Source: Candidatus Anstonellales archaeon
GTDB lineage: Archaea; Micrarchaeota; Micrarchaeia; Anstonellales; J096
Length of the DNA stretch: 64,000 nt
Assembly: GCA_038896535.1 (NCBI GenBank)
Contig: JAWACY010000002.1
Location: forward strand, 96,001 to 160,000
Reading direction: 5' to 3'
In this document: in pieces, positions 46,807 to 50,257 of the stretch
How the letters are laid out: each line of letters begins with the position of its first letter
Numbering within the stretch: position 1 is the first letter of the stretch
Translations under genes and position numbers: made by a program
Notes under the pieces: generated by a model
Seen by the model: only the letters and a program-made list of their open reading frames with translations
Told to the model about the DNA's origin: nothing
The model's database searches: none

Positions 46807-47025
46807 TCAAAGGGAATAAATATAGACTATTGAATCTCCTCTTAAAAACATCTTTTCAGCATTTATTTCCTGGCCGTTTTCAAGCTTCATATTAACTTTT
46901 AGCAATGATAGGTTTAAATGTATGTCATATGCAACAAGCTTTGCTTTTATTTCTCTATTCCCTTTTATGCCTATAACAACATCTTTGCCAACCATCTCAT
47001 TTATATAATCAAAGGGTTTTGCCAT
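46807..47025 (-). CDS. Sm-like (Lsm) RNA-binding protein
   Basis: KLVAYDIHLNLSL, FLRGDSIVYI. Confidence 0.95.
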   Translation of the reverse strand: MAKPFDYINEMVGKDVVIGIKGNREIKAKLVAYDIHLNLSLLKVNMKLENGQEINAEKMFLRGDSIVYIYSL

Positions 47026-47042
47026 TTTATCAACCTTCTTAT

Positions 47043-49258: not shown

Positions 49259-49720
49259 TTATGCTCTTATAAGTGCTGCTGCCTCTTCTGGGTCATATTT
49301 CCATGTAGCACTTATCTCGCCTTTTTTCTTATAATATGAAGCAAGCCTGTTTATTTTGCTCAAAATATGGTTATATTTAACCCTATTTGCAATGTCCTTC
49401 TTATTCTTTTTCAAATGCTCCCATAACCTGACAGCTTTTCTAATTAAGTTAAGCATGTCCTCAGGCATTTTTGTATATATTTTTTCCTGCTTGAGAAATT
49501 GTTTCATGCTAACTCCTGTAAGCCCTTTGAATGAAGGCACACCATACTGGTCTCTTAAAATTACTCCTATATTTGCAGTACTATTGCCCTGCCTAAAAAG
49601 TTTTTTTACAATGTCCTTTGCCTCTTCTGCATTTAACTGCGCAAATGCTGGACTGCTTTTCTTCCTGCCAGCAAATTTACTTGAACTTTTTCCTTTTTTC
49701 TTTGAATGCAATCTTGCCAT
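49259..49720 (-). CDS. rps15: 30S ribosomal protein S15 (uS15)
   Basis: MARLHSKKKGKS, ILRDQYGVP, PEDMLNLIRKA. Confidence 0.97.
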   Translation of the reverse strand: MARLHSKKKGKSSSKFAGRKKSSPAFAQLNAEEAKDIVKKLFRQGNSTANIGVILRDQYGVPSFKGLTGVSMKQFLKQEKIYTKMPEDMLNLIRKAVRLWEHLKKNKKDIANRVKYNHILSKINRLASYYKKKGEISATWKYDPEEAAALIRA

Positions 49721-50035
49721 TTAATCACCCAATTCAATCATATTTTCTTTATACCCCATCTTTATGAGCAATTCTTTTGCCTTTTTTTTATGCTCACCTT
49801 GCAACATTATCTTATCATCTTTTAAAGACCCACCGCAAGCAAGTTTTGATTTCAACTGCTTGAAAATTTCTTTTATCTGGCTCTTTTCTATGCCTTCAAC
49901 AATTGTTATAAATTTCTTGAACTTTGCTTTTGCAGTATATATTTTTATTCTTTTAACCGCTCCTTCTCTTGTCAATGTATCACAAACGCAAAGTTCAAGT
50001 GGTAAATTACATGTAGGACATTTTTCTCCTATTAT
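49721..50035 (-). CDS. sui1: Translation initiation factor aIF1 (SUI1), probable non-AUG (ATA) start
   Basis: LKSKLACGG..K..KIMLQGEH core. The conserved N-terminal CPTCNLPLELCVC lies in frame upstream of the track's TTG start, with no ATG/GTG/TTG before the in-frame TAA at 50051-50053. Confidence 0.9.
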   Translation of the reverse strand: MIGEKCPTCNLPLELCVCDTLTREGAVKRIKIYTAKAKFKKFITIVEGIEKSQIKEIFKQLKSKLACGGSLKDDKIMLQGEHKKKAKELLIKMGYKENMIELGD

Positions 50036-50039
50036 AATA

Positions 50040-50060
50040 TCAACCTCCTCTTACTGCCAT
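50040..50060 (-). promoter_or_regulatory. 6-codon uORF (MAVRGG*) containing the aIF1 Shine-Dalgarno GGAGGTTGA
   Basis: ATG GCA GTA AGA GGA GGT TGA between the rpl29 stop and aIF1. Confidence 0.55.
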
Positions 50061-50068
50061 TATATATT

Positions 50069-50257
50069 TTAACTTGCATAACCTCCTTTTTCAAACTCTT
50101 TACCATGTATGAATGTTATTATTCTTGCTCGCATCCTTTTTAATTTCTTTATTTTCACTTCATCCTGGGCTGATAAAGCAAGCATCTCCTTCTCAATATT
50201 TTCAAGCTGCTTTTTCAGCTCATCAACAGGCATTGATTTCAATTCTTTTTTCTTCAT
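50069..50257 (-). CDS. rpl29: 50S ribosomal protein L29
   Basis: KELKSM..DEL...IKKLKRMRARIIT; operon position. Confidence 0.92.
   Translation of the reverse strand: MKKKELKSMPVDELKKQLENIEKEMLALSAQDEVKIKKLKRMRARIITFIHGKEFEKGGYAS

Follow-up and report, generated by a model that had tools for sequence, protein, structure and literature searches.

How does a cell begin translation of a gene that has no canonical start codon, when the product of that gene is the very factor that checks start codons? The question is raised by the gene for archaeal initiation factor 1 (aIF1, SUI1 family) on the minus strand of a 64,000-nt stretch of DNA from Candidatus Anstonellales archaeon (GenBank assembly GCA_038896535.1, contig JAWACY010000002.1, positions 96,001 to 160,000). 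This whole stretch is referred to below as the window, and positions are counted from its first letter. We consider it somewhat probable that this single-copy gene, which lacks an ATG, GTG or TTG start, is translated from a near-cognate AUA codon, and that the most likely function of such a start is negative feedback of aIF1 on its own synthesis.

Self-control of a proofreading factor through a poor start is textbook knowledge in bacteria (IF3) and eukaryotes (eIF1); for archaea we found no description of it. Autoregulation is established for IF3, which has an AUU start, and for eIF1, which has a start in poor context (PMC4705826). The primary reports, as cited there, are Butler et al. (1987) for translational autorepression through the AUU of infC and Ivanov et al. 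(2010) for the autoregulated eIF1 AUG in poor Kozak context, the latter cited in PMC6237735 as well. The literature searched (subscription-only papers being outside its scope) contained no statement of an archaeal aIF1 with a non-canonical start or of its autoregulation. Neither subject is mentioned in the available excerpts of PMC6237735 and of two reviews of archaeal and comparative initiation, PMC4705826 (2014) and PMC7531240 (2020), and the string 'autoregulat' does not occur in the last. According to PMC4705826, it has yet to be established whether GUG or UUG starts play any selective role in translational control in archaea.

The aIF1 frame has no canonical codon ahead of the zinc knuckle

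The aIF1 gene lies 3′ of rpl29, and its frame is open over 109 codons down to the stop TAA at 49723–49721. Its product passed the Pfam SUI1 test with 60.4 bits against a curated cut-off of 25.5. The solved aIF1 4mo0_A aligned with it over residues 4–102 (E 4.1e-26), including the CxxC...CxC zinc knuckle, which is present in its archaeal form and predicted to bind zinc. The first-pass annotation of the window, made by a model from the letters alone, had described this knuckle as intact, and all four Cys are indeed in place.

On the minus strand the start region reads TAA (50053–50051) GAG GAG GTT GAT ATT ATA ATA GGA GAA AAA TGT (50020–18) CCT ACA TGT ... TGC GTT TGT, an exact match, in sequence and translation, to what the first-pass annotation had quoted. 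Neither the sequence, nor its translation, nor the list of open reading frames (ORFs) has an ATG, GTG or TTG between the stop at 50053–50051 and the knuckle; the first canonical codon in frame is TTG 49975–49973, 3′ of the knuckle. Readthrough of the three in-frame TAA codons from rpl29 was considered and rejected.

The missing codon could in principle be a sequencing or assembly error, or the mark of a decaying pseudogene whose functional counterpart lies in the unassembled 9% of the genome. The assembly (751,790 bp in 5 contigs, 31–32% G+C) is a metagenome-assembled genome (MAG) and 91% complete, which leaves room for such a counterpart; nevertheless it has a single SUI1 match (one PF01253 match), the frame and motifs of this copy are intact, and the feature is conserved in many genomes. 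The same letters, with 0 differences from the window over the stretch, appear in Logan contigs of four runs that span two studies and several samples, so an ATG-to-ATA error of the kind considered in the first-pass annotation left no trace in them; since these data are contigs, minor variants or a minority ATG allele would not show. Positions 50030–50038 are covered by the contigs of X1 (depth 17.5, and possibly the source), X5 and X6; that of X2 stops at 50036. The runs containing the stretch are labelled hot springs metagenome, and no RNA run was among those listed. Error or decay is thus, in our estimate, the least credible of the explanations considered, and extremely unlikely.

An AUA codon behind a strong Shine–Dalgarno site is the likely start

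The 3′ end of the 16S rRNA in this genome is ...GATCACCTCC, and therefore the Shine–Dalgarno (SD) sequence of the genome is GGAGGTGATC. The extended SD of aIF1 pairs with this 3′ end save for one extra T. A crude gene call of the genome gave 745 ORFs, 190 of them with an SD match of at least 5 nt; these 190 start with ATG in 162 cases, TTG in 20 and GTG in 8, and their spacers, measured between the final G of GGAGG and the start codon, peak at 7 nt (103 ORFs), followed by 8 nt (27 ORFs). An SD match of at least 6 nt was found in only 53 of the 745 ORFs, and the GGAGGT of aIF1 belongs to this stronger class.

Three near-cognate codons lie between this SD and the knuckle (Table 1). The start is likely AUA, either 50035–50033 or the adjacent 50032–50030, with AUU 50038 less likely. 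The Lsm gene of the window (47023–47035, minus strand) has an SD variant, GGTTGAT, with one T more than the 16S complement GGTGAT, followed by AAA ATG. ATA 50035 copies this layout (GGTTGAT-NNN-start), just as the first-pass annotation had stated. ATA 50032 aligns with Met1 of 4mo0. Among relatives in the order, spacers of 8 nt and 11 nt occur in 5/55 and 4/55 aIF1 genes, respectively. The predicted N-terminus from AUA is (M)IGEKCPTCNLPLELCVCDTLTR or a form one residue shorter. As proposed at first pass, a non-AUG start remains the best reading, given the strong SD and the conserved weak starts described below; the placement at 50035 rather than 50032 was not borne out to that precision.

Table 1. 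Features of the aIF1 locus in window coordinates, aIF1 first and neighbouring genes last.
Feature	Position	Strand	Remarks
aIF1 coding sequence	49721..50035 from ATA 50035; 3 nt less from ATA 50032	(-)	translation, Pfam, 4mo0 alignment
Candidate start ATT	50038-36	(-)	spacer 5 from GGAGG; 6 codons to first Cys, as in 0/55 genes of the order
Candidate start ATA	50035-33	(-)	spacer 8; 5 codons to first Cys, as in 4/55 genes of the order, 3 of them of its own genus
Candidate start ATA	50032-30	(-)	spacer 11; 4 codons to first Cys, as in 37/55 genes of the order
SD GGAGGT	50048-50043	(-)	3 nt before ATA 50035 in its extended form, GGAGGTTGAT, 50039..50048
In-frame TAA	50051..50053	(-)	closes the aIF1 frame 5′; third in-frame TAA after rpl29 (others 50071-69 and 50062-60)
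N-terminal zinc knuckle, CPTCNLPLELCVC	49982..50020	(-)	four Cys all intact; aligned to 4mo0 knuckle; motif common to relatives
SUI1 domain PF01253	49748..49954	(-)	E 2.4e-16; covers residues 29-97 when the translation (105 residues) is counted from 50038
Rival start GTGAT-ACA-TTG	49973..49983	(-)	modal SD spacing of the genome
Mini-ORF MAVRGG*, 6 codons (ATG GCA GTA AGA GGA GGT TGA)	50040..50060	(-)	other frame; stops on SD; functional role unsupported
rpl29 (uL29)	50069..50257	(-)	same frame as aIF1; stop TAA 50071-50069; Pfam Ribosomal_L29 E 4.9e-4, under curated cut-off
Ribosomal protein gene, S13/S15 family	49259..49720	(-)	downstream of aIF1; ORF list, Pfam

Specificity for aIF1 within the genome was assessed by a scan for strong SD 6-mers at the 5′ end of ORFs of at least 60 codons, which gave 43 sites. 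A canonical start stood at the SD in 33 of them and nearby in 4; the 6 without one were aIF1, two sites with an ATG six or seven codons on, and three that were read as off-frame artefacts. Among the 43 sites, only aIF1 makes a convincing case of an SD-led ORF that lacks a canonical start, and an earlier scan of the 745 ORFs of the genome yielded no other convincing non-canonical start. Genome-wide relaxation of start usage was rejected, as both scans gave aIF1 only.

A standard gene caller would begin the gene at TTG 49975–49973, which leaves an 84-residue aIF1 without knuckle and makes the knuckle codons upstream a recent relic. This codon is canonical and follows a 5-nt SD match at modal spacing. 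Yet all four Cys are in place together with an undamaged LP.ELCVC motif, the frame is open back to the SD, and the supposed SD has a coding role: GTGAT is the Cys-Asp (TGT GAT) of CVCD, while the TTG falls on a conserved hydrophobic position. GTGAT together with a canonical codon occurs in 2 of the 64 knuckle-bearing genes of the order, close to chance (8/64 × 9/64). No relative is cut to the SUI1 core, the Cys-less ones (9/73) keeping an N-terminal segment of similar length; elsewhere, near-cognate starts directly follow an in-frame stop and the knuckle is under purifying selection. We regard initiation at this TTG as quite unlikely.

The upstream mini-ORF has the frequency expected by chance

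The first-pass annotation had also pointed to a six-codon ORF upstream, MAVRGG*, and suggested that it relays ribosomes to aIF1 by reinitiation. The mini-ORF exists as described: its ATG at 50060 starts 8 nt past the rpl29 stop (50071–50069), and its TGA (50042–40) falls on the SD. Mini-ORFs of 2–10 codons that begin with ATG within 40 nt upstream were present in 50 of the 190 SD-led genes, against 18% of random 40-nt windows; the mini-ORF is no commoner than chance gives. No counterpart was found in relatives, where near-cognate starts often directly follow an in-frame stop, and no SD lies at a working distance from the mini-ORF ATG, the first GGAGG being 21 nt off. Reinitiation dependent on this ORF, and with it the relay, was rejected as unsupported, given the chance frequency of the ORF and its absence in relatives.

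The mini-ORF might instead feed ribosomes directly into the aIF1 frame, because a +1 step from GGT-TGA enters it and would fuse MAVRGG to aIF1. In prfB, frameshifting relies on a slippery P-site codon that re-pairs in +1, an in-frame stop, and an SD about 3 nt upstream. At GGT TGA T the stop is present. Re-pairing from GGU to GUU, however, is poor, the SD coincides with the P-site codons rather than preceding them, and the mini-ORF is not found in relatives; a prfB-type shift was rejected as unsupported. That aIF1 synthesis needs the mini-ORF, whether by reinitiation at AUU or AUA or by this shift, is in our view very unlikely.

A further short ORF lies in the same region (window 50032–50086, minus strand). 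ATG 50079–77, 2 nt after the first GGAGGT in the 3′ end of rpl29, opens a 15-codon ORF whose TAA at 50034–32 overlaps both ATA candidates as TAATA, one letter off the TAATG coupling motif. The region resembles a duplication of about 30 nt of the SD segment relative to genus relatives, whose rpl29 ends ...GGV*/GGA* at the aIF1 SD.

Weak aIF1 starts are widespread in the order

Start regions of aIF1 were read from 136 Micrarchaeota genomes with family and genus codes, 73 from the same order (families f1–f12) and 63 from sister orders. Classes were assigned by a classifier anchored on the knuckle, in which starred classes in ATG lineages are artefacts (ATG one codon after ATA). Within the order, aIF1 starts with TTG in 43 of the 73 genomes and with ATG in 14, of which 5 have no SD at 5–11 nt. 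GTG was found in 2, ATA in the genome studied alone, and CTG in one (G005, with CTG only and no canonical codon); 3 were ambiguous and 9 had no knuckle. TTG-started aIF1 occurs in 9 of the 12 families and 21 of the 33 genera of the order. One ambiguous genome, G148, reads GCT ATA ATA GAC AAA TGT, against ATA ATG or TTG TTG in its sister genomes, and the sole canonical codon that it has in frame is a GTG lying within the SD.

Named control genes proved inadequate for comparison: tblastn with S15, L29, S3Ae and NAC of the window matched 3, 1, 2 and 0 of 109 loci, respectively, and a positional reading of L29 starts was messy. Both were replaced by a single blind caller of starts, based on the SD and applied to all remaining long ORFs of the same loci; calls with an SD of at least 5 nt were counted. 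Within the order, this caller gave TTG 37, ATG 10 and GTG 6 for aIF1 (n=53), against ATG 115, TTG 8 and GTG 6 for the neighbouring genes (n=129). In the sister orders aIF1 has ATG in nearly all 63 genomes; here the blind caller gave ATG 22, TTG 1 and GTG 1 for aIF1 (n=24), and ATG 50, GTG 12 and TTG 7 for controls (n=69).

Outside the order, aIF1 of G162 (locus L126, family f14) reads AGT CTG CCT where its relatives have CTA ATG CCT, an apparent 3-nt deletion turning CTA-ATG into CTG; apart from a GTG within the SD, it has no canonical codon in frame.

A FastTree phylogeny of S3 and aIF1 covered 111 genomes, 99 of them with an assigned state. No fewer than 15 changes are required to explain the start class on this tree, including 12 between ATG and non-ATG. 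The class is therefore clustered yet has switched repeatedly, and the genome counts are not independent.

Near-cognate starts recur in another phylum and appear to be under selection

Three further groups of archaea were compared. In a phylum reached through a Woesearchaeota-titled record (30 loci) and another reached through a Hadarchaeota-titled record (5 loci), aIF1 starts, read by eye, were ATG in 34 loci and GTG in 1; the phylum of G176 is a thin sample of only 5 genomes. The third group, the phylum of G180, has genomes of 0.3–1.0 Mb, was reached from record L051 and has no genomes in common with the other two. Among the 30 loci from the order of G180, 12 have no in-frame canonical codon at all (8 CTG, 4 ATA) and 8 more have CTG as the best placed codon, with GTG or TTG inside or beside the SD; the others have GTG (3) or ATG (7). 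In the rest of this phylum (27 loci), ATG was found in 15 and no canonical codon in 5 (4 ATC, 1 ATA), the four ATC codons standing directly behind an in-frame stop or the SD. Among 80 metagenome contigs, aIF1 had CTG only in 10 and TTG in 15.

The 22 codons that follow the start were compared within six groups in which the near-cognate start is invariant. Synonymous and non-synonymous changes numbered 52/21, 35/7, 60/29, 154/80, 195/40 and 4/0. With an invariant odd start and mostly synonymous change downstream of it, the knuckle is probably translated and the start codon probably under selection, because a codon that merely encoded Leu or Ile would have changed by drift. The weak start of aIF1 thus looks selected rather than an accident of one genome. 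Together, the comparisons show, at the level of predicted starts, that a weak or near-cognate start is specific to the aIF1 gene and conserved, both across this order and within a second phylum of DPANN-size genomes.

The first-pass annotation had suggested looking for a conserved non-AUG codon at this position in Micrarchaeota and other archaea. Weak starts were indeed found in the order and in the second phylum; the sister orders and the two other phyla have ATG almost throughout. It had also named a case that would have spoken against the idea, namely close relatives that all have ATG, and the closest relatives proved to have TTG.

The initiation site is weak in its codon, with a strong SD

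Among calls with an SD of at least 5 nt, the SD is at least 6 nt long in 47 of the 55 aIF1 genes of the order and in 65 of the 131 control genes. Judging from these matches, the weakness of the site is in codon choice, not in ribosome binding. The spacer also differs: it is 9–10 nt in 41/55 aIF1 genes of the order and mostly 7–8 nt in controls (73/131).

In the Micrarchaeota orders that keep ATG (families f13–f24, e.g. L117, L118 and L138), 28 of 32 aIF1 genes have a spacer of 12–13 nt, a length seen in 6 of 74 controls. On reading of the start regions, the stop of the upstream ORF overlaps the aIF1 ATG as TAATG, and so the long spacer may reflect coupling to rpl29 rather than a deliberately poor site. 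Of the 80 named loci (L031–L110), 27 have the stop of the upstream ORF 11 nt ahead of the codon for the first Cys.

A weak start could also do no more than lower the yield of aIF1 relative to the co-transcribed ribosomal proteins, the level of aIF1 itself having no effect. The gene sits between rpl29 and rps15 in one operon, and a cell requires less of an initiation factor than of ribosomal proteins. In Haloferax volcanii reporters, moreover, UUG is a poor start with undetectable activity, and AUG performs 5–37 times better than GUG (PMC4574771). Such tuning, however, could use any weak signal, whereas the SD of aIF1 exceeds that of neighbouring genes in strength and the weakening is confined to codon choice or spacing, the step that aIF1 itself checks. 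TTG is rare in other genes of the same loci (8/129), and near-cognate starts occur on the same gene in separate phyla. We therefore hold fixed attenuation to be unlikely, if still the main alternative to feedback.

Possible feedback on start-codon stringency

Negative feedback, the function that we favour for the AUA start, is suggested by the activity of aIF1. The factor destabilises initiation complexes on non-AUG codons (PMC4705826, PMC6237735), and in vitro the 30S complex of S. solfataricus rejects an AUU mRNA when aIF1 is present (PMC4705826). Because of this destabilising activity, feedback is the most likely function of a non-AUG start on the aIF1 mRNA. The strong GGAGGT SD would hold the 30S subunit, so that the step presumed to be limiting is the one at which initiator tRNA must pair despite a codon mismatch. 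When plentiful, aIF1 would turn down the start codon of its own mRNA, and when scarce it would let the start through, so that the factor would be held at a set level relative to ribosomes, as with IF3 (AUU) and eIF1 (AUG in poor context). Feedback resembling that of infC or eIF1 is plausible on this analysis.

Several findings weigh against this interpretation. Weak aIF1 starts are not universal, given the ATG of the sister Micrarchaeota orders and of 34 of the 35 loci in two other phyla; feedback, if present, uses another feature in ATG lineages or is lineage-specific. The start class is phylogenetically clustered, so that genome counts overstate independence. No relative of the aIF1 with more than 64% protein identity was found, a search of metagenomes with the single protein yielding none closer and a profile scan reaching at most 59% identity, too distant to date the ATA. 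SD geometry favours one ATA and homology the other, which makes 50035 and 50032 indistinguishable by sequence. The TTG at 49975, behind the knuckle, has in its favour the canonical codon, 5-nt SD and modal spacing noted above. Finally, sequence alone fits feedback and fixed attenuation alike.

A formal parallel is bacterial infC. There, too, the gene of a factor that rejects start codons begins with a non-canonical AUN behind a ribosome-binding site, and the odd codon is conserved. The folds of IF3 and aIF1 are unrelated (PMC4705826), however, and feedback was shown genetically for infC, whereas for aIF1 it is inferred. The usual weak codon in the order is UUG rather than AUU, and in the archaea sampled the trait is restricted to certain lineages.

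Eukaryotic eIF1 is the homologous protein (Pfam SUI1; eIF1 chains matched at E ~2e-4) and likewise has a suboptimal site on its own mRNA. It keeps AUG and weakens the context, while aIF1 here weakens the codon and keeps a strong SD. The ATG-started aIF1 genes with long spacers may parallel eIF1 more closely, although their spacers fit TAATG coupling to rpl29 as well. The solved archaeal aIF1 structures 4mo0 (also 5jb3 and 5jbh) and 5zcy were compared at the protein level; 4mo0 matches both knuckle and core.

We put forward, as a tentative proposal that we would not yet call probable, that start-codon-stringency feedback on the mRNA of the fidelity factor itself exists in all three domains. Its archaeal forms would be lineage-specific: in Micrarchaeota and the second DPANN-size phylum, a strong SD followed by UUG, AUA, CUG or AUC, and, where AUG is kept, perhaps an over-long spacer. 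If this is true, the aIF1 mRNA would be the cell's sensor of initiation stringency, and it would show convergent logic, or inheritance common with eukaryotes, in how this stringency is set. Gene callers would then systematically mis-start or truncate aIF1 in these lineages. In practice, automatic annotation can be expected to leave such genes with an N-terminus that is wrong, truncated or missing. A conserved near-cognate aIF1 start also offers a concrete, testable handle on weak starts in archaeal translational control.

Operon setting and further observations

aIF1 is the third gene in the order S3-L29-aIF1 of the window and lies inside an S3-L29-aIF1-S15 ribosomal-protein operon, since its stop runs straight into the ATG that starts the ribosomal protein gene downstream (S13/S15 family), as TAAATG. 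By tblastn, S3 is upstream of aIF1 in 77 of 109 related loci. The first GGAGGT of the region (50086–50081) falls within the last rpl29 codons.

When the related loci were scanned from their SD sites for ORFs lacking a canonical start, the outcome was noisy, and GC-richer loci gave many ORFs that were off-frame; matches other than aIF1 and the L29 gene of G089 looked like such off-frame ORFs. In G089 (L135, minus strand, locus position ~1234), rpl29 has ACG directly after an in-frame TAA, with an AGGTGA SD. The sister genome G071 (L133) has ATG at this position (MKIKDIKNMS, against TKIKEIRNMS in G089), so that the ACG either serves as the start or reflects a T-to-C error in the MAG.

The N-terminal region of aIF1 itself varies among relatives. 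Proteins that have lost all four Cys and kept the N-terminal segment (DPITGLPKELGVW-type) were found in 9/73 genomes of the order (L016, L157, L161–L166, L172 and others), and Cys-less aIF1 also occurs in 7/30 loci of the phylum of G177. Loss of the knuckle has thus occurred repeatedly, and with no shortening of the protein. Conversely, in L115, L218 (family f21), L070 and L073, aIF1 has an N-terminal extension with an extra CxxC pair before the usual knuckle.

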